From a virus, in the IMG/VR virus record IMGVR_UViG_3300046718_000268: DNA of 62,400 nt, one strand, 5' to 3'. Shown piece after piece: positions 5,816 through 59,723 of the stretch. The position numbers were made by a program, and so were the translations under genes. Numbering within the stretch: the stretch's first letter is position 1; the number at the start of each line of letters is the position of its first letter. Below the pieces are notes generated by a model, which did no database searches, was not told the origin of the DNA, and saw nothing but the letters and a program-made list of their open reading frames with translations.

Positions 5816-5828
5816 TTTACAGAACTCC

Positions 5829-5857: not shown

Positions 5858-5934
5858 TCAAGCTAAGGCGTGAGGCCTGCCAGCCATGGGTTGGTGCATC
5901 AGAGTAAGGTGTTCCAACTCAAAGGAGATTTCCC

Positions 5935-32605: not shown

Positions 32606-32629
32606 GTTACAATTATAGCACAGTCGGGG

Positions 32630-32704
32630 TTAACGTGCAAGCATTAAAAATTCATCACGAGCTTCGCGTTCATCTTTCATAACACCGCGTAGCGCTGACG
32701 TTAT
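32630..32704 (-). pseudogene. orphan duplicate of the folE 3' end (24 codons + stop) left downstream of the HNH gene
   Basis: - strand translation ITSALRGVMKDEREARDEFLMLAR*. The first 22 residues match the extant FolE C-terminus exactly, but 15 of the 22 codons differ synonymously. Confidence 0.75.
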
Positions 32705-33632: not shown

Positions 33633-33634
33633 TA

Positions 33635-34012
33635 TTAGAACTCCGGATTGCGTTTTGATATCGCCCAACAGTTCTTTGTCTCCCAGACTTGAACGCTTTC
33701 GCATATGACATTCTGAGATAGCGCACTAGCAATGCGCTCTCGAAACCAGTATGCGATAAATTCTGCTGTCGGATTTTCCAATCCTTCAATGTCGTTAAGC
33801 ATTCGATGATCACAGTAATCGATAAGCGGCAAGACTATGCGATCCAGATCGAAGAAATCTAGAATAAAACCTGTCTCCTGTATCGGTCCAGAAAGAACAA
33901 CTTCGATTTCATAGTTATGACCGTGAGGACGCTTGCACTTGTGGTTATCGGCGACATTTGGTAGCCAATGACCAGCGATGAGTTCATAACGATTTCCAAT
34001 TGTCGTTGTCAT
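33635..34012 (-). CDS. queD: 6-carboxy-5,6,7,8-tetrahydropterin synthase
   Basis: CKRPHGHNYEIEVV and CDHRMLND motifs; 125 aa. Confidence 0.9.
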   Translation of the reverse strand: MTTTIGNRYELIAGHWLPNVADNHKCKRPHGHNYEIEVVLSGPIQETGFILDFFDLDRIVLPLIDYCDHRMLNDIEGLENPTAEFIAYWFRERIASALSQNVICESVQVWETKNCWAISKRNPEF

Positions 34013-34965: not shown

Positions 34966-35987
34966 GCAACATTCTCCGCGATTTGTAGAACTTGAGTGAA
35001 TCTGTCAAGCTCTTCCGATGTAGTAACGAACGACGGGCCAACCCTAATATACGGCTTATGCCACGAGATTACAAGCCTATAATGTTCGAACACTTTTCGA
35101 AATTTGTCGTAATTGCCGTCGACTAATTTAAAGCCGAATGCGCCTAGACCATAGAAGCCAAGATCTTGTAGGCGTCGTTGAATATAATTGACACGAAACC
35201 CAAGTTCAATCTCCTCCTGAATTAAGTGAGATAGAACTCGAAGGCCAATGGTTGAGGTGAGGTTGTTGCCACCGCAAGTTGTGTTTAACCCTGTGGGCGG
35301 CACCGTGCGAATCGCTTTGTAGTGGCCCCCTAGCAGCGCTAACGGTGCGCCTTGTGCTATACCCTTACCGGCAATTACCATGTCTGCACTGCGGTTCATA
35401 AATCGAACACCGCAACGCATGAAGCTAGTAATCATTTCGTCGGCTACGAGAGTTGCGCCATATATATCGCACATTTCACGAAGTCGTCTTTCGTCCGGCA
35501 TATGCCCAGACCAGCCCTGAATCGGCTCATAAAAAAGCATGTCGAAGGATGGTACATGATTGGCATTTGGGTCGATTGTAATAAGCTCGATTGGATTACC
35601 CCAAGGCACATCATATCGAGCGCAAGACATCGATATAGACTTACCATGGAACGAGTTTTGAAGAACTGCAACTTTCGGCAGTCTTTTAATTGCAGTGGCA
35701 GTGATTTGGATGGCACGTTCGACTGCTTCGGCTCCAGTGTTGACTAGCAACCATTCGAAACGTGAATCGTAATGATGAAGAAGTTCACATAGCAGTCTTG
35801 CATTTTCCGCAGGACGATCGTAAGTGTTAATGAGACCAGACATAATAACATCGTTTAGTGCGTCATCTACAACTTTCGAACCATGTCCGAGAGACACATT
35901 CAAAATACCGCTGAGCATATCCAACCATTTAAGATTGAACTTGTCGACGATAACATTTCCGTGTGCTGATTTCATCATTTTCTGCAC
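34893..35987 (-). CDS. class-III (PLP-dependent) aminotransferase
   Basis: NTGAEAVERAIQI, FHGKS, ADEMITSFMRCG, ADMVIAGKGIAQGAPL (candidate PLP-lysine) motifs; overlaps both neighbouring genes. Confidence 0.8.
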   Translation of the reverse strand: MQKMMKSAHGNVIVDKFNLKWLDMLSGILNVSLGHGSKVVDDALNDVIMSGLINTYDRPAENARLLCELLHHYDSRFEWLLVNTGAEAVERAIQITATAIKRLPKVAVLQNSFHGKSISMSCARYDVPWGNPIELITIDPNANHVPSFDMLFYEPIQGWSGHMPDERRLREMCDIYGATLVADEMITSFMRCGVRFMNRSADMVIAGKGIAQGAPLALLGGHYKAIRTVPPTGLNTTCGGNNLTSTIGLRVLSHLIQEEIELGFRVNYIQRRLQDLGFYGLGAFGFKLVDGNYDKFRKVFEHYRLVISWHKPYIRVGPSFVTTSEELDRFTQVLQIAENVACQSSVSTSMEHSPDLLNGIVEKQ

Positions 35988-36736
35988 TCATCATAATTGG
36001 TGGTTTTTGGAAGTTCCATCAATCCTTCGCTCCATGCTCTAACCACAAGTGGATCCGGCAGTCCAGCTTTTTCAAAACCGTCTGCTCGGAGCACGTTAGC
36101 GTGATTCATGTCGGTAGGCGGATATTTGCCGTCATACGACGTATGCGTATAGGCTAGAGCTTCCCAACATCCAGGAAGCCCTTTTGCCATTCGAACCGTA
36201 TCAGCTTTAGACAGGTCCATGAGCGGTGTATGAATTCGGATAGGACGAGTACCTCGATGATCATGACCCAACGCGGCATTGATATAATCTTGTGTGCGTC
36301 GGATAAATTCATAACGGCAATCGTCATAGTTGGCATTATCCATCTGACAGACGCCGATGACAATGCTACTGATTCCCCATGCCTCAGCGCGGTTCGCAGC
36401 TATGGTGAGGAACAATGCATTACGCATCGGAACAAACGTCAATTCTCTGCGATCGCCGATGGTCTTTTCCATCTGCTCTGCGTTTTCGTAACGCTCGAGA
36501 GACTGCGACGAATCAACTAATGGTGATTTACTGATTAATTCAGCAGTGTGAATTAAACTCCAAGTCTTAACTTTCGCCATTGCTGTAACTTCTTCAGCTG
36601 CACGAATTTCACGAATATGGGTCTGCCCATAATCGAAAGTAATAGCATGAACTTCTTCGAACATGAACTTAGCCCAGAAGAGGCATGTCGTCGAATCCTG
36701 TCCACCGGAGAGAATTACGAGAGCTTTACTTGACAT
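35975..36736 (-). CDS. queC: 7-cyano-7-deazaguanine synthase-like (QueC family), C-terminal Zn-Cys cluster apparently absent
   Basis: ALVILSGGQDSTTCL PP-loop. The C-terminal SYDGKYPPTDMNHANVLRADGF occupies the place of the usual C..C..C..C motif. Confidence 0.8.
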   Translation of the reverse strand: MSSKALVILSGGQDSTTCLFWAKFMFEEVHAITFDYGQTHIREIRAAEEVTAMAKVKTWSLIHTAELISKSPLVDSSQSLERYENAEQMEKTIGDRRELTFVPMRNALFLTIAANRAEAWGISSIVIGVCQMDNANYDDCRYEFIRRTQDYINAALGHDHRGTRPIRIHTPLMDLSKADTVRMAKGLPGCWEALAYTHTSYDGKYPPTDMNHANVLRADGFEKAGLPDPLVVRAWSEGLMELPKTTNYDECRK

Positions 36737-36899
36737 TGTCCCTCTCTTTAATCATTCGAAGTTTAAGGTCATACAAATATACACGGATTAGTTGGGCATC
36801 AGCAAGCGTTAATTTTTGCAGAGCAGTGATGTCATTACCTTTAACGATTTCTTCAAAGATCCGAAGCAAATCATTAATTGGTGTAAGATTGTTCGGCAT
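36726..36899 (-). CDS. small hypothetical protein (57 aa)
   Basis: Hand translation MPNNLTPINDLLRIFEEIVKGNDITALQKLTLADAQLIRVYLYDLKLRMIKERDNVK; coupled to both neighbours. Confidence 0.35.
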   Translation of the reverse strand: MPNNLTPINDLLRIFEEIVKGNDITALQKLTLADAQLIRVYLYDLKLRMIKERDNVK

Positions 36900-37234
36900 T
36901 AAAAGACTCCGTCACCTGGAACTGCACCTTCAATATCTAAAGATATTGATGTTTTATATTCTTCTATTTTTAGAAATTCACGATGTGCGTCTTTCGGTTT
37001 AACTCCATCGCGAACAATACAAGTATGAAAATCAATAAACATCATAGCAATCTTACCTTCTCTAGAGAGAGAACGTCTTGGAACGTAGCACATTCCTCCT
37101 GAGAATAAAAAGCGTTGATCCCAATAGATATTATTGCCAAGTTCGGCAACTTGAATTAATCCAGGCAAGTGTTTTTGTGAAAGTGGATTTCTTGGATTCC
37201 ACATGACGATATAATTATTAACTGTAATAGTCAT
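36899..37234 (-). CDS. hypothetical protein (111 aa) inside the deazaguanine cluster
   Basis: ORF abutting the queE stop; no motif recognised. Confidence 0.5.
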   Translation of the reverse strand: MTITVNNYIVMWNPRNPLSQKHLPGLIQVAELGNNIYWDQRFLFSGGMCYVPRRSLSREGKIAMMFIDFHTCIVRDGVKPKDAHREFLKIEEYKTSISLDIEGAVPGDGVF

Positions 37235-38002
37235 TTAGTCGACTCCAATAATCTTATGAAGTTGCAGACCAAGAATGTAGCCGTACCTTAGACAGGAGGC
37301 TTTGCATGCTTCGAGCGAAGCTTCATTGCGAGCCAAGTCATCAGGGTTATCGCCAATGCCATGGTCCATGGGCTCAAGGTAAATCGGGACACGGTCCCTT
37401 TCGTATAGTGGAGTGACATATTTTGGTCTGGCAACGACTGACTTGACATTGTGGTTAAGGACTTTGATGGGGAGCCCGTCGATTTTGCTAACGGAGTCAT
37501 AGGACATCACGTATTTGAAGCAACATGCAACTTCGTGAAAGATTGGATGTACACGTCCAGTTTTAGGACTGCAGACAATGTATATACCATCACGCTTTCC
37601 GAGATCTTGTTCATATTCAAAATCTTTCGGAGGCTGTATTGTACCGTTTGTTTCGATTTGAACCCAATAAAGCAATCGACGTAGACGTTTCAAAAGTGGT
37701 TCGAGATTTTGTCGAAAAGGTTCGCCGCCAGTTATGACGATAAGTGGGCTGATGACATTATAACCACAAGCGTCATTGACGCTCGTAGTAATATCGACAA
37801 TTGTCATATATCGACGTTGGCTAGTATAGTCCGTATCACATCCGGGGCATTGAAGATTGCAGCCGGCAAGGCGGATAAAGACTGCCGGCGTACCAGCAAA
37901 CGGACCTTCGCCTTGTATCGTGTAGAAAATAGATTGAATTTCTAGGTCGCCATTCGGATGTGCTTCTCGCTTCTCGATTGGCTGTTGGTTTAACATAGTC
38001 AC
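37235..38002 (-). CDS. queE: 7-carboxy-7-deazaguanine synthase (radical SAM)
   Basis: TIQGEGPFAGTPAVFIRLAGCNLQCPGCDT (Cx14CxxC QueE-type cluster). Confidence 0.85.
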   Translation of the reverse strand: MTMLNQQPIEKREAHPNGDLEIQSIFYTIQGEGPFAGTPAVFIRLAGCNLQCPGCDTDYTSQRRYMTIVDITTSVNDACGYNVISPLIVITGGEPFRQNLEPLLKRLRRLLYWVQIETNGTIQPPKDFEYEQDLGKRDGIYIVCSPKTGRVHPIFHEVACCFKYVMSYDSVSKIDGLPIKVLNHNVKSVVARPKYVTPLYERDRVPIYLEPMDHGIGDNPDDLARNEASLEACKASCLRYGYILGLQLHKIIGVD

Positions 38003-38159
38003 TCCCGAGTTTCCTAGCGATGCTAGGGGTTGCGGAGTAGTGGGGCGAGGACAGACCTTTGGTATCTGAAGGAAACCAACATCCGAAACCTCGCCCCGTC
38101 CCAGAATGGTTCACTCCAGGACTTGATGGCCGGGTAAGCTCTTATTAGCCGCCTGCCGA

Positions 38160-38195
38160 CGAAACAACCCGGCATCACGGAGCAAATGCCGGGTT
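38160..38195 (-). terminator. hairpin terminator candidate after gene 38214..38810
   Basis: 10-bp stem AACCCGGCAT/ATGCCGGGTT (38166-38175 / 38186-38195), then GTTTCG on the - strand (weak U tract). Confidence 0.4.
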
Positions 38196-38213
38196 GAATC
38201 GAGCAGCTAGGTC

Positions 38214-38810
38214 TTACGACTGCGGCTGCTCGGAAGCAACCGGAGCCGTGGGGGCGGCGACCGGCGCTGCGGCGACCGGAACGGGCGCGGGCTTCGGCGC
38301 CTCGATCCGACCGCTGATGCCGTGGAACTTCCGCCAGCGAGCGTACTCGGCGCGCACGTTGGCATCGTTCAGACCGCGCGAACGGCTGATTTCCATCGAC
38401 TCCTTGATGGAAGCCGGCTGTCCGTTGCGGGTCGAGACCTCGTCGAACACGTCCCAAGCCTGGGCGCAGAGGCCACCCGGCTTCGGTCGACGGACCTCGT
38501 TCTGCTCCGGCATCTTGTTCGCCTCCTTGGCGGCGAGCATCGCGGCCTTCTGGTCGGCCTTCTCCTTCTCCTTCGCCTGCTTCTCGGCAGCACGAGCGGC
38601 TTCCTTCGCCTGCTTCTCGGCGACCTTGGCCGCCTGCTTGGCGACCTTCTCCGCCTCGCGCTTGGCAGCGGCTTCGGCCTTCGCAGCTTCCTTCGCAGCA
38701 GCGGCAGCAGCCTGAGCGGCAGCGACCGCGGCAGGATCGATGACCGGCGTCGGCGTCGGGGTCGGGGTCGGATTCGGAACAGGCATCGCATTCGGGTCGG
38801 TGGTATCCAT
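38214..38810 (-). CDS. Ala/Lys/Pro-repeat protein with conserved C-terminal WRK..GISG domain (paralog of 54926..55540)
   Basis: Start at MDTTDPN (AAGGAG RBS); PTPTPTPTP and AAKEAAKAEAAAK repeats; C-terminal GGLCAQAWDVF...RAEYARWRKFHGISGR. Confidence 0.6.
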   Translation of the reverse strand: MDTTDPNAMPVPNPTPTPTPTPVIDPAAVAAAQAAAAAAKEAAKAEAAAKREAEKVAKQAAKVAEKQAKEAARAAEKQAKEKEKADQKAAMLAAKEANKMPEQNEVRRPKPGGLCAQAWDVFDEVSTRNGQPASIKESMEISRSRGLNDANVRAEYARWRKFHGISGRIEAPKPAPVPVAAAPVAAPTAPVASEQPQS

Positions 38811-38857
38811 TTTCAGTCTCCTTCTTTGAGTTAGGGAACCATGCGGTTCGTGCAGTA

Positions 38858-38886
38858 TAAATAGCATGTCAGGGCGGACCTTGCAA
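38858..38886 (-). promoter_or_regulatory. promoter-like TTGCAA-N17-TATTTA (- strand) for 38214..38810
   Basis: - strand reads CTTGCAAGGTccgccctgacatgcTATTTA; shares TTGCAAGGT with the early promoters. Confidence 0.45.
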
Positions 38887-38889
38887 GCA

Positions 38890-39480
38890 TTATTTCTTGA
38901 TAGGGCGCATTTTCTGCCAGTTACCAAGTTCGCAGGAGCAAGTCGAACGATTTACTCCCTCTTTCTCAAGGATCTTCATCCACTCCTTGCGGAGCTTAAG
39001 AACAACCTTGATATCGGTCGGGCTACCAGCGGCGGCCCAGAGCTCATCAGCACGTTGCCAAATCAGATCGCGCGTACCAGCCTGACGGGGCGCACGAGAC
39101 ATCAACTGTGCCGGAATTGATGGGTCGGTAGGTGATGTGATATATCCACCGACTAGAACGACAGTTTGCTCTCCGATTGTAGCCATCTTCTTAACCGGAT
39201 GAGCTTCGAAATCATGCTCTCCAAGGAATTCTGGGAAGTTCTCATAGATTGCAATGCTGCGAGCATTGCCGTCCTGGCTGATATTCACCTGAACTTCGAA
39301 ATTCTCGTTATCGCAGAAGATTGGCCGACGTTCCTTGCGGCGAACATCCGATACGCTCTTGATCGGCGCCCACACGCGCGGCGCATCAATCCAATCTGGA
39401 ATCGGCAAACGGATCAATTGTCCGTTCTTATCGAATTTGCGCTTATCCAGAAAGACGGGAATCTTCAGATCGTCTTGCAT
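38890..39480 (-). CDS. hypothetical protein (196 aa); C-terminus distantly like the WRK-domain family
   Basis: ORF; C-terminal ...RSTCSCELGNWQKMRPI. Confidence 0.55.
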   Translation of the reverse strand: MQDDLKIPVFLDKRKFDKNGQLIRLPIPDWIDAPRVWAPIKSVSDVRRKERRPIFCDNENFEVQVNISQDGNARSIAIYENFPEFLGEHDFEAHPVKKMATIGEQTVVLVGGYITSPTDPSIPAQLMSRAPRQAGTRDLIWQRADELWAAAGSPTDIKVVLKLRKEWMKILEKEGVNRSTCSCELGNWQKMRPIKK

Positions 39481-41237: not shown

Positions 41238-42142
41238 TCTCTGCTCTTGTAAGTGATGCAGCCTCGAAGCTGCTCCTCCTTCGTTAGGAATTTATTATGC
41301 ATTGTACACTGCCATTGGCCGGAAGGCAAGGGCACACTTGCGACGCAAGTTCTACAATTTCTTTCGACAACTGCGCCTTGAAGTCCAAAACAGACGAGCT
41401 TATGGTCGCACCATCGGCACTTCCAAAATCCAGGCGATTCACTAATACGCTTTGGTGGATTGAGTGCAAAGACGACCTTTTCGCCACGTTCGAAAAGTTG
41501 ATCACAAAGTTCAGGATTAAGAATGATAAGTTCAAGATGCAAATCATCTGTGTTCTTATTGACTGCACAATACAGACCGACTGCAAGGCCCATCTTACGC
41601 ATATACATCTGCATTTGAATATAATGTTCGAGTTTCGACTCACGAACGCCTTTATCGACTAAATCGTTAAACGATTTATCGCCATGCGTTTTGCATTCAA
41701 GGAGAGCAGGCTGTCCCGGTTCAAGATCGGGAATATCGATACCTACGCCGTCGCCAGAACCTCCAATATGTCCGCCTGCGTGAGAGATTGTATATTGTTT
41801 TCCATCAGGTGTTTGCTGATAGACTTGTACTTTGATCATTAAGAGAAGCGCTATAATACGAGCTTCTTCTAAATGGCCGCGATTAAAAAGGCGAAGTGTT
41901 TTTCCATCAAATCGGCGATAAGTAAACCATCGCCAACCATACCACATCTGACGAAGACATTCGCCACCGAGCACAGATGCTCCTAGGTGACTGCGGAATT
42001 TGTCCTCATCTTGTCTGTAGGCGTCTTTGATGTGTGGTAAAACTTGTTGAAGATAATGTCGATAAAGATTTCCTTGGTCCACTTCGAGTGCTGCATTTAT
42101 CGCAGCGAGCGTTTTAGTCGCCATACGGACATTCGGATTCAT
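41234..42142 (-). CDS. PD-(D/E)XK (Cas4/RecB-like) exonuclease with C-terminal Cys cluster
   Basis: ALLECKTHGDKSF core; CRWCDHKLVC...CRTC; start taken at ATG 42142 rather than TTG 42187. Confidence 0.6.
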   Translation of the reverse strand: MNPNVRMATKTLAAINAALEVDQGNLYRHYLQQVLPHIKDAYRQDEDKFRSHLGASVLGGECLRQMWYGWRWFTYRRFDGKTLRLFNRGHLEEARIIALLLMIKVQVYQQTPDGKQYTISHAGGHIGGSGDGVGIDIPDLEPGQPALLECKTHGDKSFNDLVDKGVRESKLEHYIQMQMYMRKMGLAVGLYCAVNKNTDDLHLELIILNPELCDQLFERGEKVVFALNPPKRISESPGFWKCRWCDHKLVCFGLQGAVVERNCRTCVASVPLPSGQWQCTMHNKFLTKEEQLRGCITYKSRE

Positions 42143-42300
42143 GATGTTCTTTCCATAGAGAAATCGATGGAGCGCGCTCGGGATCAAACCGGGACACCTC
42201 TGCTATCGGCCAACTAGATCCTACCCGCCCTTGTCGGGTCAACGGACCAAGAGTTCAAGATACCTCTCCTAGCCTAGTGGCTCCATCGACTCACCTCAGA

Positions 42301-43011
42301 CTAACGCTGCCAGGGAGGCGGCGCAGTCTGCGGATTGGGTTGCGTCGGCTGTGTCGGTTGCGCCGGCTGTGCAGGCTGTGCAGCCGGTTGCGGGTTCTGC
42401 CACGGCTGTGCTGCCGGGGGCTGCCAGGTCTGTGCAGGCGCCTGCGTTGCGGGCGGCTGTGTACCGTTAGGTGCAGGCGGGGTCCATGCAGGCGTAGCGG
42501 TCGGTTGTGGCTGTACGGGCGCAGGGGCCGGCGCAGCAGCGATCGGCGGTGGTGCCCACCCTTGCTGCGGCGGCGCAACGGGACTCGGAGCGGCAGCGGC
42601 ACCTCCAACGGCAGCATTGATGTTCTGCCAGTCGGTAATGTCGTTCTGGTCGTCGTACTGCTGCGTCGGATCCTTGCGAATCTTTACGCGCACCTTCATC
42701 GGCAAACCGTGAAGCTGCTCGCTGTTCGCAATCTGCAGAACGCCGACCGCATGGCCGATAGCCGAAAGCTGCCGGTAAGCAATCTCCTTCGCCGTGACCG
42801 ACTGGTTATGCAAGTTCAATCGCGCGAACAGCTTGCGATTGATGTACTGGCCGTCGAGAATATTGAACCGAAGCTGCAGATAAGCTCCGAGACCGTCCTT
42901 CGTCGGCTTCATCTCCGAGTCGTCGATCGCGACGTTATACCATCCCGCAGGAATGGCTTCCATTCCCGTGGAGGGTTCCACGGTTCGTGCATCGAAATTA
43001 AGCTGAACCAT
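42301..43011 (-). CDS. DUF669-type single-strand DNA-binding protein with about 110-aa Pro/Gln/Ala-rich tail
   Basis: N-terminal LNFDARTVEP...GWYNVAI...LQLRFNILDGQYINRKLFARLNLHN..AKEIAYRQLSAIGHA is the DUF669 pattern as recalled. Confidence 0.6.
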   Translation of the reverse strand: MVQLNFDARTVEPSTGMEAIPAGWYNVAIDDSEMKPTKDGLGAYLQLRFNILDGQYINRKLFARLNLHNQSVTAKEIAYRQLSAIGHAVGVLQIANSEQLHGLPMKVRVKIRKDPTQQYDDQNDITDWQNINAAVGGAAAAPSPVAPPQQGWAPPPIAAAPAPAPVQPQPTATPAWTPPAPNGTQPPATQAPAQTWQPPAAQPWQNPQPAAQPAQPAQPTQPTQPNPQTAPPPWQR

Positions 43012-52978: not shown

Positions 52979-53484
52979 TTGAGAAGATCTCCAAAGACGC
53001 TCTTGTATGCAGGAACGCTAGCAGACTCAGGATTCGATTGCAAGCGACTTTCATACAATTCAATTTGAGCATAGTATTCGATAATATTAGCGTCACGCTG
53101 TTGAATTTGATCGTTATTCCATTGTTCGAATGAAGTTACACCTTCCTGGTGAAGTTTATCCTGTGAAAGGATTGATTCGTAGAGCTGTAGGAGAAATGGA
53201 TCATTTGGAGGTGGAAAGGGCAACGGTCCAAGATTTCTAACCACAATGCTACGAGTAGTTGGATCAGTTGGTTCAGGTTTAAGAGGAGCAAGTGCTTTTT
53301 TGATTTGGAAATCACGTGCTCGAGCAATCTTAGTATATTCGGCAGCAGGTAAATCTGCGATATCTGAATATTTTCGAGGACGGCCGTTAGGTTTGATTGA
53401 AAAAGTAGTTGGGGTTAGGCGAGGAGGATTAGATGGAGGGTTTGTTGGATTGGTAGGATCGGATGGAGGGTTGGATGGTGACAT
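52975..53484 (-). CDS. first gene of leftward operon; Pro/Asn-repeat N-terminus with GRPRKY (AT-hook-like)
   Basis: ORF; its ATG lies 6 nt downstream of a TATACT -10 element. Confidence 0.5.
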   Translation of the reverse strand: MSPSNPPSDPTNPTNPPSNPPRLTPTTFSIKPNGRPRKYSDIADLPAAEYTKIARARDFQIKKALAPLKPEPTDPTTRSIVVRNLGPLPFPPPNDPFLLQLYESILSQDKLHQEGVTSFEQWNNDQIQQRDANIIEYYAQIELYESRLQSNPESASVPAYKSVFGDLLK

Positions 53485-53490
53485 GGTGAA

Positions 53491-53519
53491 AGTATAGCAG
53501 GGAAAGGACGATAGGGCAA
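53491..53519 (-). promoter_or_regulatory. leftward promoter TTGCCC-N17-TATACT giving an apparently leaderless mRNA
   Basis: - strand CTTGCCCtatcgtcctttccctgcTATACTttcaccATG; only 6 nt between the -10 and the ATG at 53484. Confidence 0.5.
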
Positions 53520-53861
53520 GCAGATAAGTGTGAGGAGTTAGTTTTGGCTTTCTTTTGACAATTGCATTATTTTGAGTGCAATAGCTGGCTGGTAAATATT
53601 GGCTCGTAAAGAAAGGGAAAGTATGTTCTAATCTAGTTGGTCTGGCGATGCCGGCCGACCTTCACTATCTCTTAGTTTCGACTTTTGGCAACTATTTCAA
53701 AATAATACTATAATATATAATATATCTAATTAAGTAGTTGTTTTCTAAAGGTATTCTTAAATTCGACTATTTTTTTTCGAACTCCAAGACGTACTAAATA
53801 TTAGTTCATCGATGTTACGGCCATTAACATCGACCTAAATGCTATTTGCCAAAACTATTAA

Positions 53862-53968
53862 GAAGCATGCTTCGGGAAATCCATTCCTTCAAGAAGCATG
53901 CTTCGCGAATTTCGATTTTAAAGAAGCATGCTTCGGGAAAGAAGCATGCTTCTGGAGAAGCATGCTTC
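53862..53968. repeat. array of five exact 12-bp palindromes GAAGCATGCTTC (operator/iteron-like)
   Basis: Copies at 53862, 53893, 53923, 53941, 53957 (start-to-start spacing 31, 30, 18, 16 bp). Confidence 0.85.
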
Positions 53969-53994
53969 GGGAATGACGGTTTCGTCCCAGTTCG

Positions 53995-54027
53995 TACCGG
54001 TCGTCCCTCGATTTACCGGTCGTCCCT
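53995..54027. repeat. direct repeat TACCGGTCGTCCCT x2
   Basis: 53995-54008 and 54014-54027, followed by hairpin CTGCATCGGGGATGCAG. Confidence 0.6.
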
Positions 54028-54146
54028 GCATCGGGGATGCAGTGCAACTTTACACGAACAAGATGCGCGGCTCGTGCAGGTTGCAATCGAAAACCATATC
54101 GATGCCATGGTTACTTCGAGTAACTGCGATGTCGACATGGTTTTTC

Positions 54147-54172
54147 GATGCAACTCACGATTGAGTTGCATC
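54147..54172. promoter_or_regulatory. 11-bp inverted repeat GATGCAACTCA-cgat-TGAGTTGCATC
   Basis: Perfect arms at 54147-54157 and 54162-54172. A related imperfect palindrome GATGCAACTAATTATTAATTGCATC lies near 55740. Confidence 0.5.
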
Positions 54173-54280
54173 AGAATATCCACTTCGAAAGTAGGGGCAA
54201 AAATCTGCATCGCGACTGTATTATGGTAGCACAAAAGTTCGAGCGGCGCAAGCTGAAAGTCTGTGGAAAACTTTTTTGAG

Positions 54281-54289
54281 TTATCCACC
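54281..54289 (+). promoter_or_regulatory. DnaA-box-like element, variant TTATCCACC (copy 1 of 8)
   Basis: gagTTATCCACCgatttttgact. Confidence 0.5.
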
Positions 54290-54371
54290 GATTTTTGACT
54301 TGTGCTCGCCTGTCGATTTTGGTAGGGCCGAAATCGAGCTAGCACATCAAGCCGGCGAGCGCAACGATATA

Positions 54372-54389
54372 TTTTCTAGGCCTAGAAAA
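54372..54389. promoter_or_regulatory. 18-bp perfect palindrome TTTTCTAGGCCTAGAAAA
   Basis: Read directly. Confidence 0.5.
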
Positions 54390-54491
54390 ATTCGATGGGA
54401 GGCCGAAGCTACCGGCGATCGCCCCGCGCTTGATTAGCGCCTTGCATTGTGGTTAGCAGGGTAGTTCGGTAGGCGCAAGGCGAAACGTAAG

Positions 54492-54500
54492 TTATCCACA
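54492..54500 (+). promoter_or_regulatory. DnaA-box-like TTATCCACA (copy 2)
   Basis: aagTTATCCACAGaaaa; TTGCAC 18 bp downstream of the box start. Confidence 0.6.
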
Positions 54501-54675
54501 GAAAACAAATTGCACGAGCCGACCGAGTATGGGTTCGAGGTTCGCAAAAATTCGCGAGCTAGCACGGTAAAAGAGGCGCTACAGTCGTTTGGTTCGCCTC
54601 CCCCGGCACGGGGCGTGCCAGGGCAAGGGCGAAAGCGGCGCAGTGCCGAAATTCGGCCGGCTACGCGGCGAACCC

Positions 54676-54758
54676 CATAAGAGGCGTTACAGCCGCTTTT
54701 CGGTTGCTGCCGCCCCAAGGGTACCAGCTTTGCGCAAGCGGCTGTAGCGCCTCTTATG
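54676..54758. repeat. long hairpin / inverted repeat with 23-bp arms (1 mismatch), 37-nt loop
   Basis: CATAAGAGGCGTTACAGCCGCTT (54676-54698) vs AAGCGGCTGTAGCGCCTCTTATG (54736-54758). Confidence 0.7.
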
Positions 54759-54815
54759 CCGCTTTAGCGGCATTGCGCCGACCTTATAGTGTGCGCTGCA
54801 CAGCAGGCGCGAAAG

Positions 54816-54824
54816 TTATCCACA
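54816..54824 (+). promoter_or_regulatory. DnaA-box-like TTATCCACA (copy 3)
   Basis: aagTTATCCACAGaaaa; TTGCAC 37 bp downstream. Confidence 0.6.
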
Positions 54825-54852
54825 GAAAATGCGGCTATGGCGTGCTTTACGC

Positions 54853-54880
54853 TTGCACAGTACGCTCTTTCTGCTATGTT
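54853..54880 (+). promoter_or_regulatory. promoter-like TTGCAC-N16-TATGTT for 54926..55540
   Basis: Read directly. Confidence 0.4.
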
Positions 54881-54925
54881 GTGTGCAGCAACGCATTCCG
54901 CGTTGCAAACGCAAAGGTAGTTCAA

Positions 54926-55540
54926 ATGCTTAATATTTCAACAGCTAACAAGGGCCAGCTGCGCCAGGGTATGCGCGATGCTGGTTTGCCGTATGCGGTC
55001 GATGGGCATACGCTTACGAATGAGGAAATGCGCGTTGCACTGCTCGCGCACTTCGGTACGCCGGCGGACGATGTTGCGCCGGTCGTGCAGGAAGAGGAAG
55101 TTGCACCTCCGGTGCAGGCTTTCGATGCCGCGCTGAACGGCGTGGTTGATGCGTGCGCCGCGCAAGTTGCGGTGGACGAGGTTGCTGCACAGGAAGTGCA
55201 GCTTGTTGCCGACCCGACGGAAGTTGCGCCGCTTGTGCAGATTCCGGAAGTTGCGCCCGTCGTGCAGATTCCGACCCCGATGGTTGCGCCGCGCGGTACC
55301 AGCAAGGGGCTCAAAATCCAAAAGGACCGCCCCAGCCAAAACGGTGTACGCATGCCCAGCGAGGGCGGCTTGTGCCGTGCGGTATGGGACTATTTGCAGA
55401 ACGAGTGCGATCACGGCCGCATGCCGACCGCAAAGGACGTCAAGGCGTACGCTGCGACCGTCGGTTGGAACACGAACAATGCAAGTATCGAGTTCTACAA
55501 CTGGCGCAAGTACAATGGGATCTCGGGTCGGCAGAGCTAG
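54926..55540 (+). CDS. early protein with (E/D)VAP.VQ repeats and C-terminal WRK..GISG domain (paralog of 38214..38810)
   Basis: Start at MLNISTANKG. 27-bp tandem repeat at 55220-55246 / 55247-55273. C-terminal GGLCRAVWDYL...SIEFYNWRKYNGISGR. Confidence 0.6.
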   Translation: MLNISTANKGQLRQGMRDAGLPYAVDGHTLTNEEMRVALLAHFGTPADDVAPVVQEEEVAPPVQAFDAALNGVVDACAAQVAVDEVAAQEVQLVADPTEVAPLVQIPEVAPVVQIPTPMVAPRGTSKGLKIQKDRPSQNGVRMPSEGGLCRAVWDYLQNECDHGRMPTAKDVKAYAATVGWNTNNASIEFYNWRKYNGISGRQS

Positions 55541-55561
55541 CACGTACCACGCAACAAGGAG

Positions 55562-55589
55562 AAAGGCGCACGCTATGTGCGCCTTTTTT
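55562..55589 (+). terminator. rho-independent terminator
   Basis: AAAGGCGCAC-gctat-GTGCGCCTTT followed by TTT. Confidence 0.8.
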
Positions 55590-56043
55590 CGTCAGCGCAC
55601 ACGGCGTGCGCAAATGAAGATGCAGGAGGGACGCATGTTTCGAGCTTCGCTATAGCGCACTATCGAGTCCATTGGACGCCGCGATAACGTGAAATCGCTT
55701 CAAAGCGGCCCTTCGGGTCGCTTTTGTTCGATTGGTAGATGCAACTAATTATTAATTGCATCGACGGAACGGGCTGTCGCGGCCGAAAAACTTGCCTGCT
55801 AGGTACCAGAATTTCGGCGCTACGGTACCTTGGGGCCTCCCCCGAGGCACGGGGCGTGGCGGCGATCTGACATAGGCGGCGTTCAGCCTTAAAACCGACC
55901 TAGCAGGCGCCGAAAATCTAATTGCAGTGCAAATATCCGATTTGCAAACCCGATTTGCCGCTATAGCCGTTTGGTGCTCAATTCGCCCCAAGGGTGGCGG
56001 CGAAGTTAGTGCTGCTGTAGCGGCGATTACGAGGCGAACCAAG

Positions 56044-56052
56044 TTATCCACA
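56044..56052 (+). promoter_or_regulatory. DnaA-box-like TTATCCACA (copy 4)
   Basis: aagTTATCCACAGatttt; TTGCAC 37 bp downstream. Confidence 0.6.
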
Positions 56053-56080
56053 GATTTTCGCTTCCGTCGACCTTTTTGGC

Positions 56081-56109
56081 TTGCACGAAAATCTAGCATG
56101 GGGTACCTT
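56081..56109 (+). promoter_or_regulatory. early promoter TTGCAC-N17-TACCTT
   Basis: Same -35/-10 pair as at 56456 and 57497; followed by gtgcataccgc. Confidence 0.5.
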
Positions 56110-56151
56110 GTGCATACCGCACTTCCGCGGTACCGCAAAAGGTCCTAAAAA

Positions 56152-56442
56152 ATGTTTGTTGCACACCACATCGCAGTCGCCGCTTTCCACGCTACAAAAG
56201 CGCGCCTCCCCGTCCAGCTCTCGGTCGCAGCTCGCCGCTACAATGCCAATCACCCTCGTCCGCAGCCTACCGCCGCCGGTTTAGCCGAAGTGCAAGCGGA
56301 AAGGGATTTCAAGCCTATGCCTGCTTTCCTTCTCGCGCAATGGGGTACCAGCAACGAAGAGTTGTTGCGTGCCGCGCGCGTCTTCGCCCGCAAGGTCCAG
56401 CTTGCAAAGGAACTTGCAGCTCGCATGCGTAATTCCAACTAG
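56152..56442 (+). CDS. early hypothetical protein (96 aa)
   Basis: ORF about 40 nt downstream of the promoter, AAAAGG RBS. Confidence 0.45.
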   Translation: MFVAHHIAVAAFHATKARLPVQLSVAARRYNANHPRPQPTAAGLAEVQAERDFKPMPAFLLAQWGTSNEELLRAARVFARKVQLAKELAARMRNSN

Positions 56443-56455
56443 GTCAAAAAAGAGC

Positions 56456-56488
56456 TTGCAAGGTACGCGCTTCTCGTGTACCTTGCAA
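56456..56488 (+). promoter_or_regulatory. early promoter TTGCAA-N17-TACCTT embedded in 11-bp inverted repeat TTGCAAGGTAC-N11-GTACCTTGCAA
   Basis: Arms at 56456-56466 and 56478-56488. Confidence 0.5.
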
Positions 56489-56524
56489 ACACTGCATACC
56501 GCAGCAACCGAAAAGGATTTTCAA

Positions 56525-56701
56525 ATGTTCACCATGTTTTTCGATTGGTACGCCGCTCGCACGCCGGCCCGTACAAAGCGCCGGGAAGAGATGATTGCAC
56601 GTCGCGTGCGGATCGTCCAGGCTCGCAAGGAGCTCAAGCAGGCACGGCGTGATGCGCGTCGCATCCCCTGGCCGCCGGTCAAGCTGACGGTCGCCGCCTA
56701 G
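56525..56701 (+). CDS. early small basic protein (58 aa)
   Basis: AAAAGGA RBS; MFTMFFDWYAARTPARTKRREEMIARR... Confidence 0.45.
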   Translation: MFTMFFDWYAARTPARTKRREEMIARRVRIVQARKELKQARRDARRIPWPPVKLTVAA

Positions 56702-56772
56702 GGGAGTTCAGCGGATGAGAGCGGCGCAAGCCGCTCGATTCCCCTGCACTTCCGCAGGACAAGGAGGAGTCG

Positions 56773-56937
56773 ATGCTCAAGGTCACATTCAAGTTCGAGA
56801 AGGAGACGAAGAACGCTTGGCGCTACCGGGCGGCGGACGGGCAGGCCATTCCTGGCTACAATACGCTCTATCTCTCGAAGGTCGAAGGACAGTCGGCGCC
56901 GAAGCCGACCATCGAGGTGCAGATCAGCTGGAGCTGA
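56773..56937 (+). CDS. early small protein (54 aa)
   Basis: Strong AAGGAGGAG RBS; hand translation MLKVTFKFEKETKNAWRYRAADGQAIPGYNTLYLSKVEGQSAPKPTIEVQISWS. Confidence 0.55.
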   Translation: MLKVTFKFEKETKNAWRYRAADGQAIPGYNTLYLSKVEGQSAPKPTIEVQISWS

Positions 56938-56938
56938 T

Positions 56939-56947
56939 TTATCCACA
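56939..56947 (+). promoter_or_regulatory. DnaA-box-like TTATCCACA (copy 5)
   Basis: gatTTATCCACAGag, abutting the hairpin at 56948-56975. Confidence 0.55.
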
Positions 56948-56975
56948 GAGATGTCCAGAATTCGCTGGACATCTC
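56948..56975 (+). promoter_or_regulatory. 11-bp-stem hairpin/palindrome GAGATGTCCAG-aattcg-CTGGACATCTC
   Basis: Read directly; no U tract, so it is either an operator or a weak terminator. Confidence 0.45.
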
Positions 56976-57019
56976 CTTCGCCAAGGTGCATTATGTGGAC
57001 CTTAGCAAAGGAGATGGAA

Positions 57020-57220
57020 ATGGTTTTCACAGTCACTCAGTTCACCATGCCCGCCGAGATCGTCAACCTCGAGCTCGCAGTCGCTCACGTCCGCAAGTGG
57101 CAGCGGATGTGGAGCTCGCTGCCCAGCTCAGCGCCTGCCAAGGTTCGCAAGGCCTATCTCAGCCGCCTCGCTCTCGCGAAGAGCCTGGTTAACATCCACT
57201 TCTTCATCGTGGGGGCGTAA
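57020..57220 (+). CDS. early small protein (66 aa)
   Basis: Leader AAAGGAGATGGAAATG identical to that of 57551. Confidence 0.5.
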   Translation: MVFTVTQFTMPAEIVNLELAVAHVRKWQRMWSSLPSSAPAKVRKAYLSRLALAKSLVNIHFFIVGA

Positions 57221-57221
57221 A

Positions 57222-57314
57222 GTGTTCGCTACCTACGGTCTCGCGATAGTCGCCGCGCTCTATCCCATCTCTCTCATCGCAATGGCGATAATGGCCGAGA
57301 GGAGAAAGAAGTGA
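57222..57314 (+). CDS. tiny hydrophobic peptide (30 aa, GTG start), tentative
   Basis: VFATYGLAIVAALYPISLIAMAIMAERRKK. Confidence 0.2.
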   Translation: MFATYGLAIVAALYPISLIAMAIMAERRKK

Positions 57315-57484
57315 AAATTTACATCTGCGTTGTCACGCATCCCGAGGTCAACATCGTGTCAGTTGGTGTTGCCCGCACGCAGGCCGAGGCGAAATTGAAG
57401 GCCTGGAGAAATCTCACTCACGAAACGGCGCCCATTGACGAGATGAGCGAGGAGTGGTTTGAGGATCAGTTATCCACAGAATAG
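57311..57484 (+). CDS. early small protein (57 aa, GTG start)
   Basis: GAGAGGAGAAAG RBS; the 3' end contains TTATCCACA copy 6. Confidence 0.4.
   Translation: MKIYICVVTHPEVNIVSVGVARTQAEAKLKAWRNLTHETAPIDEMSEEWFEDQLSTE
57470..57478 (+). promoter_or_regulatory. DnaA-box-like TTATCCACA (copy 6)
   Basis: cagTTATCCACAGaat; TTGCAC 27 bp downstream. Confidence 0.6.
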
Positions 57485-57496
57485 TGGATTTTGGGC

Positions 57497-57529
57497 TTGC
57501 ACAAGGTCGGCAAATCGCCTACCTTGTGC
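57497..57529 (+). promoter_or_regulatory. early promoter TTGCAC-N17-TACCTT within inverted repeat GCACAAGGT-N13-ACCTTGTGC
   Basis: Arms at 57499-57507 and 57521-57529. Confidence 0.5.
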
Positions 57530-57550
57530 ATACCAACAAAGGAGATGGAA

Positions 57551-57952
57551 ATGTTCGCTAACCCGAAAACCTACGCCGCTCAGCTTCGCGCCGCTTTTCC
57601 CGCCGGCACTCTGCCGAGCGATATGGTGTTCCAGGCGGCCGATGCCTACCCTCAAGCGCCGAGCACGTTTTGGGACGCCGTACTTGACGAGCTCCGCAAG
57701 CCGGCAGTTCCCACGCCGGCCCAGATGGCGATTGCCGTGTACGAGCACGCATCGCGTCACTACGAGAAGGGCGGCTGGGATTTCATTGTCGAGTGCTGGA
57801 CCGAGGCTGAGATCGCTGTTGAAGTTCGCTCTTGTCGTACGTACGAGGGAGCGATTGCTAAGATGGGTCGCATTGCCAAGGCACAGGACGAGCGCAGGCA
57901 GGAGGTACGCGCAGAGATGGATTGCCCTGAGGGTTATCCACCTGAGGGCTAA
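57551..57952 (+). CDS. early hypothetical protein (133 aa)
   Basis: AAAGGAGATGGAAATG leader; ORF 57491..57952 trimmed to MFANPKTY. Confidence 0.55.
   Translation: MFANPKTYAAQLRAAFPAGTLPSDMVFQAADAYPQAPSTFWDAVLDELRKPAVPTPAQMAIAVYEHASRHYEKGGWDFIVECWTEAEIAVEVRSCRTYEGAIAKMGRIAKAQDERRQEVRAEMDCPEGYPPEG
57934..57942 (+). promoter_or_regulatory. DnaA-box-like variant TTATCCACC (copy 7)
   Basis: gggTTATCCACCtgag inside the 3' end of 57551..57952. Confidence 0.4.
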
Positions 57953-58026
57953 GGGTAGAGCTGCCCACTGCCCTGTCCCACGTGGCAGGGTAGAGGCCAG
58001 CACTTCCGCTGGAACGGAGAAGACAC

Positions 58027-58152
58027 ATGATGGACATCGTTCAGTCTTGCCTTGGTGATGTGATTATCATCACCACGATTGCGGGATATGCCTATGTCGG
58101 CATCTTGCTGATTGGCATCGTACTCAAGCGGCATCGCAGGGGCGTGTCATGA
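58027..58152 (+). CDS. small membrane protein (41 aa)
   Basis: GGAGAAG RBS; MMDIVQSCLGDVIIITTIAGYAYVGILLIGIVLKRHRRGVS. Confidence 0.4.
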   Translation: MMDIVQSCLGDVIIITTIAGYAYVGILLIGIVLKRHRRGVS

Positions 58153-58319
58153 CGGAGGATCAGGCAGAGAGGCTGGCCGAGCACGAGATGGACCGGCTGG
58201 ACAGGCGCTTCATGCAGGGACACATCAACCAGGACACATACGATAAGGAGGTGCGATCCATCGACATGAGGGCAAGGCGTAGGGCAGGCGATTGGCGTCG
58301 CATGCGTAGCGACAGCTGA
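58149..58319 (+). CDS. small charged protein (56 aa)
   Basis: ATGA-coupled; MTEDQAERLAEHEMDRLDRRF... Confidence 0.4.
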   Translation: MTEDQAERLAEHEMDRLDRRFMQGHINQDTYDKEVRSIDMRARRRAGDWRRMRSDS

Positions 58320-58327
58320 TAGGGCTC

Positions 58328-58354
58328 GGGGCCGCCACGAGATGTGGTGGCCCC
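58328..58354 (+). terminator. GC-rich hairpin (terminator candidate, no U tract)
   Basis: GGGGCCGCCAC-gagat-GTGGTGGCCCC. Confidence 0.35.
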
Positions 58355-58483
58355 TCCCCAGGCCGCCGCCCCAGTAGGACGGCAATTCGGACCGACGCGA
58401 TCGGCCGGCCTTGCTGAATTCGGCCACCGATTTTTCGAAATAGTTCATAACGGCCAGCGCCTAATAGTATCTATTCTTTTTAC

Positions 58484-58492
58484 TTATCCACA
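58484..58492 (+). promoter_or_regulatory. DnaA-box-like TTATCCACA (copy 8)
   Basis: tacTTATCCACAccg; TTGCTC 27 bp downstream. Confidence 0.55.
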
Positions 58493-58510
58493 CCGATACG
58501 AAAATAATAC

Positions 58511-58539
58511 TTGCTCTATCGATCCTTTTCGTTTACACT
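58511..58539 (+). promoter_or_regulatory. promoter-like TTGCTC-N17-TACACT for 58575..59408
   Basis: Read directly. Confidence 0.4.
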
Positions 58540-58574
58540 AAAACCATAGCAATTCTATACATGGAGATTAAGAA

Positions 58575-59408
58575 ATGAACCACCCTACCGTCACCATTCT
58601 AGACAAGGAATATGACCCAGAACTTGTCTCTCGAAATAATCCGGATCCATCAATTGCAGCCCTCTTCGACTATGCTTATCTAAAGTTGGTCTCCCACGCC
58701 TACGGCGAGCGAAACGACTGTGTGGTTATAGCCCTCTGCGTCCTCTCCGGCGAGAGCTATCCAAAGGTTCACCAAATCCTAAAGAATCGTGGCCGTCGCA
58801 ATCGTTGCGGAACTCAGTGGCACACAACGACCGCAGCCCTCCATGACTTGAACTTGAAACTCCATCCCGTGACCATCACGTATGATGGAAGAACTATTCG
58901 TTCTTTGGTCCCTCAACTGCCCCATCACTTGAATGATCCTATTTCTAATATGATGCTTCCAGCCCGCTTCCTCATCAAGGCGGCGCGCCACGTCGCTGGT
59001 GTGGTTATGGGCTCCTGCGAGGATTGGAGCGATGAGCGTGGTCTCTACGTTCAGCAAGTGTATCAAGTTCTGGATTCAACCGATAATACTCCTCCAATCT
59101 CTTACAACGTGAGAACAAACACTCCAGAATATCGTGCGAGATGGTCCCATCCGACTATCAGTGCGGCAGAAGCGATTCGTGCCTTTGGAATTGCTGAAAT
59201 TCAGAAGTGGCATGAGGAGAACTATCCTGGTTCCCTTAATCTTCCGATCAACTTCCGTGGTCTACCGAAGACTCGTAAGTTCTGGTTAAGCCTGCGTGCC
59301 CGTGCAATGGCACGATGCGAAGATGCAGGCTTGAAGCGTACTACTGCTTCAATTGAACTCGGTAAGTGGCAGTCCGAGCTCGGCTATCATATGACCTACC
59401 TCCAATAA
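58575..59408 (+). CDS. early protein: possible papain-like Cys/His domain + C-terminal WRK-family-like domain
   Basis: ERNDCVVIALCVL (Cys) and ARHVAGVVMG (His) candidates; C-terminal RTTASIELGKWQSELGY. Confidence 0.5.
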   Translation: MNHPTVTILDKEYDPELVSRNNPDPSIAALFDYAYLKLVSHAYGERNDCVVIALCVLSGESYPKVHQILKNRGRRNRCGTQWHTTTAALHDLNLKLHPVTITYDGRTIRSLVPQLPHHLNDPISNMMLPARFLIKAARHVAGVVMGSCEDWSDERGLYVQQVYQVLDSTDNTPPISYNVRTNTPEYRARWSHPTISAAEAIRAFGIAEIQKWHEENYPGSLNLPINFRGLPKTRKFWLSLRARAMARCEDAGLKRTTASIELGKWQSELGYHMTYLQ

Positions 59409-59444
59409 TCGAGCCCTCTATCCCTCCTTCCAAATAGACCTTCC

Positions 59445-59723
59445 ATGAACTCCTTACAATCTTCCCTCGCGCCTCCGAATTCCTACCTCACACCGGGCCT
59501 GGACATGTGGTTAGACTTACCCAACGGGCAGCGTTATCTGATCACCGCTGCCTATTTAGCTGGTGTTACCGCGGCTCAACAGAATCGGCCCCCTATAGCC
59601 CCTGCGCCAAGGCGCGGGGCTATCTACGCGCAATGGTGGTATGGCTACCGTAACGAGAAAGCAGGCCTGCACGACTCTCTCCCATCTTCATTTGATGAAC
59701 TGATCTTGAAATTCTTTGAATAA
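59445..59723 (+). CDS. hypothetical protein (92 aa)
   Basis: ORF only. Confidence 0.45.
   Translation: MNSLQSSLAPPNSYLTPGLDMWLDLPNGQRYLITAAYLAGVTAAQQNRPPIAPAPRRGAIYAQWWYGYRNEKAGLHDSLPSSFDELILKFFE

Follow-up and report, generated by a model that had tools for sequence, protein, structure and literature searches.

The window analysed here is a 62,400-nucleotide stretch of viral DNA (IMG/VR record IMGVR_UViG_3300046718_000268, read as one strand, 5' to 3'; all positions are those of this stretch), and in its early region we find a series of co-oriented ‘DnaA boxes’—nine-letter sites matching those of the bacterial initiator DnaA—set at near-whole helical turns from predicted early promoters. 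We consider it slightly better than an even bet that these boxes act as upstream regulatory DnaA sites of sigma70-type early promoters, both in this phage and in its clade.

A scan of both strands of the whole window for TTATCCACA, the canonical R1/R4-type DnaA box, returns six perfect sites, at 54492, 54816, 56044, 56939, 57470 and 58484, all on the + strand (0.47 expected; none of 100 shuffles reaches six). These are the six sites listed in an earlier note on this DNA, with coordinates exact, and the scan adds no further perfect match. The two TTATCCACC variants at 54281 and 57934, which the note had included in its series of eight, do exist; we rank them as weaker sites because one-mismatch variants are frequent by chance (29 observed, 13.5 expected) and because variants at position 9 are promoter-linked in none of three cases in the clade described below. 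A third TTATCCACC is found at 45041, outside the box region. Gaps from one box to the next range from 211 to 1228 bp.

Five of the perfect boxes stand 81–110 nt ahead of the start codons at 54926, 56152, 57020, 57551 and 58575, with a sigma70-like promoter between each box and its gene (promoters here being predictions from sequence); the −35 elements read TTGCAC, TGGACA or TTGCTC, the −10 elements TATGTT, TACCTT, CATTAT or TACACT, and the spacers are of 16–17 bp. In these five units the −35 starts 37, 37, 27, 27 and 27 bp past the start of the box. The distances of 18, 37, 37, 27 and 27 bp given earlier for the TTGCAC/TTGCTC hexamers are right, and one more box, 56939, likewise lies 27 bp before a TGGACA-N17-CATTAT promoter; as to whether each counted hexamer marks a promoter, the TTGCAC at +18 of box 54492 lacks a convincing −10 and the others have one. 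What the note said of the flanks was overstated: extension of the box to AAGTTATCCACAGAAAA is exact only twice (54492 and 54816), the shared extended core being (A)GTTATCCACAG, and GGCG(A/C)AA precedes three boxes rather than most.

Spacing and conservation of the boxes in relatives

Near-identical metagenome copies of the same phage (L124–L132; we number loci with the prefix L) are 99.7–100% identical over 53400–59000, all being 100% identical except one short contig, and are thus uninformative, with no polymorphism signal; relatives were therefore sought with the early proteins. Loci that carry homologues of the 204-, 133- and 96-amino-acid (aa) early genes (35–72% identical) also carry perfect boxes. 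The 133-aa protein has a single homologue, 65% identical, on the 1.1 kb contig L154, where a perfect TTATCCACA is found upstream of the gene in otherwise diverged DNA, with TTGCAG-N17-TACATT at +47. The 204-aa protein has many (35–63% identity), their loci recovered by a metagenome scan and by contig look-ups; in the 73 loci of that scan the gene strand has 18 perfect boxes and the opposite strand four, with approximately 1.4 expected per strand. Perfect boxes point the same way as transcription in about 20 of 22 cases.

A closer, GC-rich clade is formed by twelve divergent relatives (L154–L156, L159, L228–L231, L234 and L240–L242), nearly all of whose loci have boxes upstream of small early genes. 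When k-mers are counted blind in the first ten regions (33.2 kb), TTATCCACA ranks first of all 9-mers, with 20 copies spread over nine of the ten loci; extended to 13 regions (43.7 kb), the count on the gene strand is 30 perfect copies. Alignment of the promoter of the 204-aa gene from the window (W), L155 and L229 shows AGTTATCCACAG to be an unbroken invariant block, with few of the 28 columns up to the −35 invariant. Two other routes to relatives were abandoned: a scan of viral contigs with the 17-mer AAGTTATCCACAGAAAA yielded more than 120 unrelated loci, many with box clusters of their own and useless as relatives, and in the relatives found by way of the UvrD-type helicase (L134–L153) the early region is either not covered or differently laid out.

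For the spacing analysis, the promoter pattern was fixed in advance as TTGNNN, a spacer of 16–18 and TANNNT, starting 9–65 bp after the start of the box (background density 0.0014 per nt); it replaced a generic best-score promoter finder, which gave noisier distances (p ~0.001–0.04). Exactly one match is obtained for 14 of 25 boxes, at distances of 17, 17, 19, 19, 27, 27, 28, 28, 37 (five times) and 47 bp. The Rayleigh statistic peaks at a period of 9.5–9.75 bp (R = 0.92), and when orthologous promoters of equal spacing are collapsed (n = 11) R is 0.90, with p = 6e-5 by a Monte Carlo procedure that includes the period scan. Held-out loci, fetched after the rule had been fixed, give 37, 27, 29, 17, 37, 17 and 27 bp (R = 0.90, p = 7e-4), with the same phase. 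Over all 13 regions a phased strict promoter is present at 17 of the 30 perfect boxes (57%), the figure for random positions being 1.4%. Strict-rule distances, counted between the first base of the box and that of the −35, are confined to 17–19, 27–29, 37 and 47 bp, which places the centre of the box near −49, −59, −69 or −79, always on the same helical face. The helical phasing put forward from the window is therefore upheld, and is made stronger by the relatives.

No single argument is stronger than the one from orthologous promoters, whose distances differ by approximately whole turns, of 9, 10 or 20 bp. The box-to-promoter distance of the 133-aa gene is +27, +27 and +47 in different phages, and that of the 96-aa gene +37, +37, +37 and +28; for the 204-aa gene it is +37 in four phages, with +27 and +18 from −35 calls assigned by hand.

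Taking the units in order along the + strand, the variant box TTATCCACC at 54281–54289 has an inverted partner, a relaxed DnaA box TTTTCCACA on the − strand at 54262–54270, their centres 19 bp apart; a like inverted pair, with centres 19–20 bp apart, is present at the first rightward promoter of L155, L159, L229 and L231. The promoter after 54281 is a weak candidate (TTGTGC 54300–54305, N17, TAGGGC 54323–54328, at +19), which does not pass the strict rule and is assigned through homology with the TTGTGC/TTGCGC-N17-TATAAT of L155 and L229. Next comes the perfect box at 54492–54500, with its TTGCAC at 54510 (+18); the orthologous position in L155 and L229 reads TTATCCGAA. The box at 54816–54824 is followed at +37 by TTGCAC 54853–54858, N16, TATGTT 54875–54880, a unit predicted to drive the gene for the 204-aa protein (54926–55540), and that at 56044–56052, also at +37, by TTGCAC 56081–56086, N17, TACCTT 56104–56109, predicted to drive the 96-aa gene (56152–56442). 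Orthologues of the latter unit have +37 in L230, +37 with TTTTCCACA in L240 and +28 with TTTTCCACA in L156. A boxless promoter of the same type (TTGCAA 56456–56461, N17, TACCTT 56479–56484) is predicted to serve the 58-aa gene (56525–56701); ahead of it, at 56430–56438, is a box remnant, TAATTCCAA, matching at five of nine positions, and its L240 orthologue has a perfect box at +27 (L240:903).

The three remaining perfect boxes all have their promoters at +27, again on the + strand. Box 56939–56947, which begins 2 nt past the stop codon of a 54-aa gene, is paired with TGGACA 56966–56971, N17, CATTAT 56989–56994 and would drive the 66-aa gene (57020–57220). Box 57470–57478, lying within the final codons of a 57-aa gene, is paired with TTGCAC 57497–57502, N17, TACCTT 57520–57525 and would drive the 133-aa gene (57551–57952); the orthologue in L230 is at +27 and that in L154, displaced by 20 bp, at +47. 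Box 58484–58492, just beyond the GC-rich island described below, is paired with TTGCTC 58511–58516, N17, TACACT 58534–58539 and would drive the 277-aa gene (58575–59408). Between these, the variant TTATCCACC at 57934–57942 lies inside the end of the 133-aa gene with no credible promoter after it, and is possibly a chance match.

Binding protein and rival explanations

To our knowledge, DnaA is the sole protein with such a specificity, and it is found in virtually every bacterium. Between species, DnaA boxes differ mainly at positions 1–3, with the CACA kept. When all one-mismatch variants in the clade are taken without preselection (14, a small sample), six have a phased promoter, the mismatch being at position 3 (three times), 5, 1 or 2; variants at positions 4, 6 and 9 are promoter-linked in none of six cases, and none of the 14 has its mismatch at position 7 or 8. 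The substitutions that are tolerated, at positions 1, 2, 3 and 5 only, thus appear to follow the specificity of DnaA, for which the published consensus is TT(A/T)TNCACA, degenerate at positions 3 and 5 (quoted in 10.1101/866236). A phage-encoded mimic, which the earlier note had offered alongside host DnaA, is not borne out: across the early genes, the replication module and the precomputed gene calls, no DnaA-like domain is detected, with neither Bac_DnaA_C nor another such Pfam family matched.

We propose that host DnaA would bind each box as a monomer and, from one face of the helix, would touch or position RNA polymerase; promoters with weak hexamers (TTGCAC / TACCTT) would most likely be stimulated, so that expression of the early genes would hinge on the DnaA status of the host and also reflect it. 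As far as sequence can tell, the layout is the anatomy of an upstream activator site—single, 5' of the −35, on one face, co-oriented and next to off-consensus hexamers—and unlike that of an origin or a datA-type sink, which is why we suppose that DnaA modulates, and most likely stimulates, these promoters. At the first promoter the inverted pair of imperfect boxes, two turns apart, may need cooperative binding. Several boxes begin at the stop codon of the gene before them, so DnaA bound there might also impede transcription coming from upstream; in addition, many copies of the phage would soak up DnaA as a by-product of genome multiplication. Among the options raised in the earlier note, that of DnaA acting at early promoters is favoured, shorn of the mimic, by the promoter link, the phase lock, the orientation bias and the conservation of the boxes amid diverged flanks.

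Several observations weigh against this proposal. Eleven of the 25 boxes have no strict-rule promoter, several of these having been assigned one by eye, and the period, at 9.5–10 bp, is slightly under 10.5 bp. Inverted boxes occur at +37/38 in L159, L229, L234 and W, so orientation is not strictly needed at that distance, which is odd for a specific protein contact; a further inverted box, of the relaxed kind, is off phase at +23 (L242:3342). The first two sites in L155 and L229 retain only AGTTATCC, with the CACA lost. Some promoters of the same type (56456) and the 22 kb early/replication part of the cultured phage PaMx25 are without boxes, which makes the boxes dispensable for such phages. 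The phage carries a 7-deazaguanine DNA modification module, and modified guanines opposite CCAC could alter DnaA contacts at the boxes. Finally, the sign of the effect, probably stimulation, is read solely from the position of the box 5' of the −35 and from the weak hexamers.

The sites might instead belong to another protein, either a host factor other than DnaA or a phage regulator (the conserved 204-aa early protein is one candidate), their identity with DnaA boxes being coincidence or mimicry; we think this unlikely. The first promoter does have a palindromic GGATAACT-N5-9-AGTTATCC typical of dimeric regulators, and the upstream sites of L155 and L229 keep AGTTATCC without CACA. Moreover, the 204-aa protein looks DNA-binding from its model, in which a disordered linker connects two confidently predicted parts, an N-terminal helix-extended-helix and a C-terminal three-helix domain, and one homologue is annotated as a transcriptional activator. 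Against this, neither profile comparison with solved structures nor Foldseek, run on its AlphaFold model, gives a significant match for it (best E = 2.5), the weak best matches, themselves not significant, being winged-helix DNA binders. Its homologues also occur in PaMx25, L161, L163, L168, L206 and L212, phages or long contigs that have no box at all, which makes it a poor candidate. Most sites are single, asymmetric, non-palindromic 9-mers; at least 20 match all nine universal DnaA box positions, with variants tolerated only at 1, 2, 3 and 5, and TTATCC lacking the following ACA is present at about chance level (~8 expected per 33 kb strand).

A ‘sink’, in which the boxes are selected mainly for datA-like titration of DnaA away from oriC, so halting rounds of host replication, with the promoter link incidental, we regard as a poor prospect. 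Each genome brings six to eight consensus boxes, and replication to many copies would add strong sites; datA and the DnaA-box clusters of Bacillus, which like the present series comprise several high-affinity boxes outside the origin, are known negative regulators acting by DnaA binding (PMC13438810). Those clusters are tight, however, and datA has an essential IHF site, whereas the boxes here are dispersed, one per promoter over 4.2 kb, and the IHF consensus WATCAANNNNTTR has no match in 53000–59500. Titration moreover requires neither helical phase nor strand bias, both of which are strong, and orthologues hold phase through indels of 9–20 bp. Titration, the second option of the note, is likely as a side effect, although the layout is not datA-like. 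Even less credible, and to our minds scarcely tenable, is the third, a DnaA-assisted origin of the plasmid or P1 kind formed by the boxes together with AT-rich DNA at 53540–53840 and five GAAGCATGCTTC repeats (53860–53975). AT-rich DNA, an iteron-like array and DnaA boxes do share one 1.4 kb non-coding region, L241 has a similar iteron-like array ahead of its boxes and the cluster at L226:2610–2860 is origin-like. Even so, the closest box is ~290 bp from the repeats and over 400 bp from the AT-rich stretch; five of the eight lie among genes, up to 4.5 kb off, in DNA of 57% GC, and single, co-oriented boxes 200–1200 bp apart differ from origin clusters. The phage also encodes a primase-helicase, a polymerase, a clamp-like factor and helicases of its own, and an origin leaves the phasing to promoters unexplained. 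We find, in sum, neither the tight cluster and IHF site of a datA-like locus nor the make-up of a DnaA-dependent origin.

Orientation-dependent transcription termination by DnaA was reportedly proposed by Schaefer and Messer in 1989 (cited in PMC13438810), and DnaA bound at the ends of small genes could likewise be a roadblock or insulator that stops RNA polymerase arriving from upstream and leaves each early unit to its own promoter, with co-orientation reflecting orientation-dependent blocking. Boxes at or within the upstream stop-codon region (56939, 57470 and 57934 in the window; L231:6314 and 6626; L234:2756; L230:1843; L159:1376 and 1687) fit such a role, as does the lack of a preceding intrinsic terminator at most boxes, the only one found being at 55562–55590. 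A roadblock has no need of a fixed phase to the next −35, however, and boxes 54816, 56044 and 58484 are far from any upstream gene end; as the main function we find it improbable, and it could work alongside regulation of early promoters by DnaA rather than instead of it.

The phage and other elements of its early region

The window is essentially one complete phage genome of 62.4 kb, recurring as contigs of 62.3–62.5 kb in several metagenomes (JGI 3300046454, SRR26076636). The phage is an uncultured, tailed, Queuovirinae-like and virulent one; its portal protein is ~54% identical to those of PaMx25 and NP1 (Pseudomonas phages) and DoCa3 (a Xanthomonas phage), members of Queuovirinae, and no lysogeny genes are seen in it. 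A scan of genome collections finds only three phage contigs binned into metagenome-assembled genomes, and these indicate no host. PaMx25, a Nipunavirus, has no perfect box in 36000–57899, the 22 kb early/replication part of its genome, so the trait is not general for Nipunavirus; in the cultured relative NP1, the homologue of the 204-aa gene sits inside the replication module.

Structural genes run rightward (1–28 kb) and replication genes leftward (28–53.5 kb); a non-coding region of 1.44 kb follows at 53485–54925, and small rightward orphan genes begin at 54926. DNA polymerase, a processivity factor, primase-helicase, helicases, ligase and RNase H are all encoded by the phage itself. The small early genes have no Pfam match and belong only to PHROGs families of unknown function, and Rfam gives no credible match over 53300–58700. 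The 7-deazaguanine module spans 31155–38002 on the − strand, its genes being a DpdA-like transglycosylase (31155–32084), FolE (33078–33704), QueD (33635–34012), a DUF5591 protein (34009–34965), an aminotransferase (34893–35987), QueC (35975–36736) and a radical-SAM enzyme (37235–38002). Composition is mosaic, with islands of 55–62% GC at 20439–27188, 38000–39000, 42000–43000 and 54000–58400 (the last at 57%, with the genome at 48%) in a genome otherwise of 40–48% GC; the islands take in most of a 2249-aa open reading frame and the early-gene block, and this mosaic suggests modules acquired from phages of GC-richer hosts. The 204-aa protein has a paralogue at 38214–38927 (− strand; same PHROGs 18634, 11298 and 21588), and the 277-aa early protein shares phrog_7864 with a 196-aa protein (38890–39480, − strand), so that a helicase-adjacent gene pair is echoed in the early region.

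Within the non-coding region, the AT-rich stretch (38% GC over 53485–53999) has promoters close to consensus facing both ways, such as TTGGCA-N18-TATAAT (53685–53714), and is followed at 53860–53975 by five palindrome-centred repeats, AAGAAGCATGCTTC, spaced by 31, 30, 18 and 16; this array could be an operator array or an origin, and a similar ACATGCTTTCGAAA array is found ahead of the boxes in L241 (~400–480). Between boxes 54492 and 54816, the non-coding DNA at 54540–54790 has a very stable predicted RNA fold (−131.8 kcal/mol, z = −6.06 relative to shuffles) and a 23-nt inverted repeat, 96% complementary (54676–54698 / 54736–54758); transcription from the promoter after box 54492 may yield a structured RNA here. 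Two long non-coding stretches hold similar palindromes, at 54146–54172 and 55737–55763 (GATGCAACT...AGTTGCATC and GATGCAACTAATTATTAATTGCATC), which may be operators of a dimeric regulator.

A hairpin motif, (C)CNGCACTTCCGCNGG(A), recurs at 56116–56132, 56743–56759 and 57997–58013, some 15–20 nt before three early start codons, and is kept in relatives (L154:88–104, with a variant form in L156 at ~1785–1801); it is probably a 5' leader element. At 56970–57016, CATCTCCTT forms an inverted repeat with AAGGAGATG, which holds the ribosome-binding site and start codon of the 66-aa gene, and the 17-mer CAAAGGAGATGGAAATG stands ahead of two different genes (57006–57022 and 57537–57553); together these suggest translational control by masking of the ribosome-binding site.

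Other box layouts are seen further afield. The distant phages L171, L172, L190 and L226 share a homologue of the C-terminal domain of the 204-aa protein, and their layouts differ: head-to-tail pairs of boxes 2–3 bp apart beside repeated GGTATGCTTCTTGCTAT in the first three (L171:1426–1446, L172:4938–5129, L190:2681–2860), and in the last (L226:2610–2860) a dense, origin-like cluster in both orientations with many degenerate boxes. An unrelated AT-rich viral contig, L013 (IMGVR_UViG_3300032116_002253), has six co-oriented (G)TTATCCACAG sites at 4753–6334, several of them directly ahead of TATAAT boxes and gene starts and including one tandem pair 3 bp apart; given this layout, promoter-linked DnaA boxes may be more widespread in phages.

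Relation to known DnaA systems and significance

DnaA is an established activator and repressor of transcription, and a proposed terminator. The cellular promoters that it regulates (nrdAB and dnaA of E. coli, gidA p1 of P. aeruginosa, the regulons of Caulobacter and Bacillus) have, as here, a consensus box at a sigma70-type promoter; upstream boxes can activate, as at the P. aeruginosa gidA promoter, which DnaA activates through such boxes (PMC13438810), and the ATP/ADP state tunes the effect. What sets the present case apart is that the promoters are viral and that an entire group of phage early promoters is involved, with one box each at the whole-turn positions −49, −59, −69 and −79, conserved across the clade. 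Class I activator sites (CRP at −61.5, −71.5 and −82.5) function solely when placed whole turns upstream of the −35, and the series of box spacings behaves in the same manner; it differs in that a monomeric initiator would act on an asymmetric 9-mer, with the phase ~3 bp off the CRP series. We know of no demonstration that DnaA contacts the C-terminal domain of the alpha subunit.

Lambda, a temperate phage, has weak DnaA boxes positioned downstream of pR, and there the effect serves to activate the origin through transcription. Here, in contrast, strong consensus boxes stand upstream of many early promoters in a phage without recognisable lysogeny genes; common to both, if our proposal holds, would be a phage promoter on which host DnaA, by contacting RNA polymerase, has a stimulating effect, as described for pR/ori-lambda, where DnaA stimulates transcription via the beta subunit (PMC8203912). 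In the iss region of T5-like phages, eight DnaA or DnaA-like boxes are conserved in the non-coding DNA that enters first, and a role other than replication, the stopping of injection at the membrane, has been proposed (10.1101/866236). Those boxes come as pairs 3 bp apart in long inverted repeats of the terminal repeat, half of them depart from the consensus, and they have no link with promoters; none of these iss features is found here, where the boxes are single except for one inverted pair (19 bp) and no long inverted repeat bears boxes. A full-text literature search, of incomplete coverage, gave no report of phased DnaA boxes at phage early promoters. Likewise, no phage early transcription programme built around DnaA is known to us. 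The protein–site pair and the type of regulation are thus both known; the setting is new, and the architecture unusually regular.

More tentatively, and with the odds in our view somewhat against it, DnaA may serve this virulent, 7-deazaguanine-type clade as a dedicated, class I-like activator of early promoters, forming a switch that senses the replication competence of the host and drains DnaA from the host origin; such a switch would be portable and host-independent, given how little DnaA and its box vary from one bacterium to another. As a transcription factor, DnaA is known to act on a limited number of host genes; its links to phages are lambda and perhaps T5. If DnaA does act at these promoters, their boxes would provide a natural spacing series (+18, +27, +37, +47) for studying how DnaA ‘talks’ to RNA polymerase, as well as a compact, host-independent promoter module for synthetic biology; for the phages themselves, they would represent a new route by which to read, and possibly shut down, the replication of the host.

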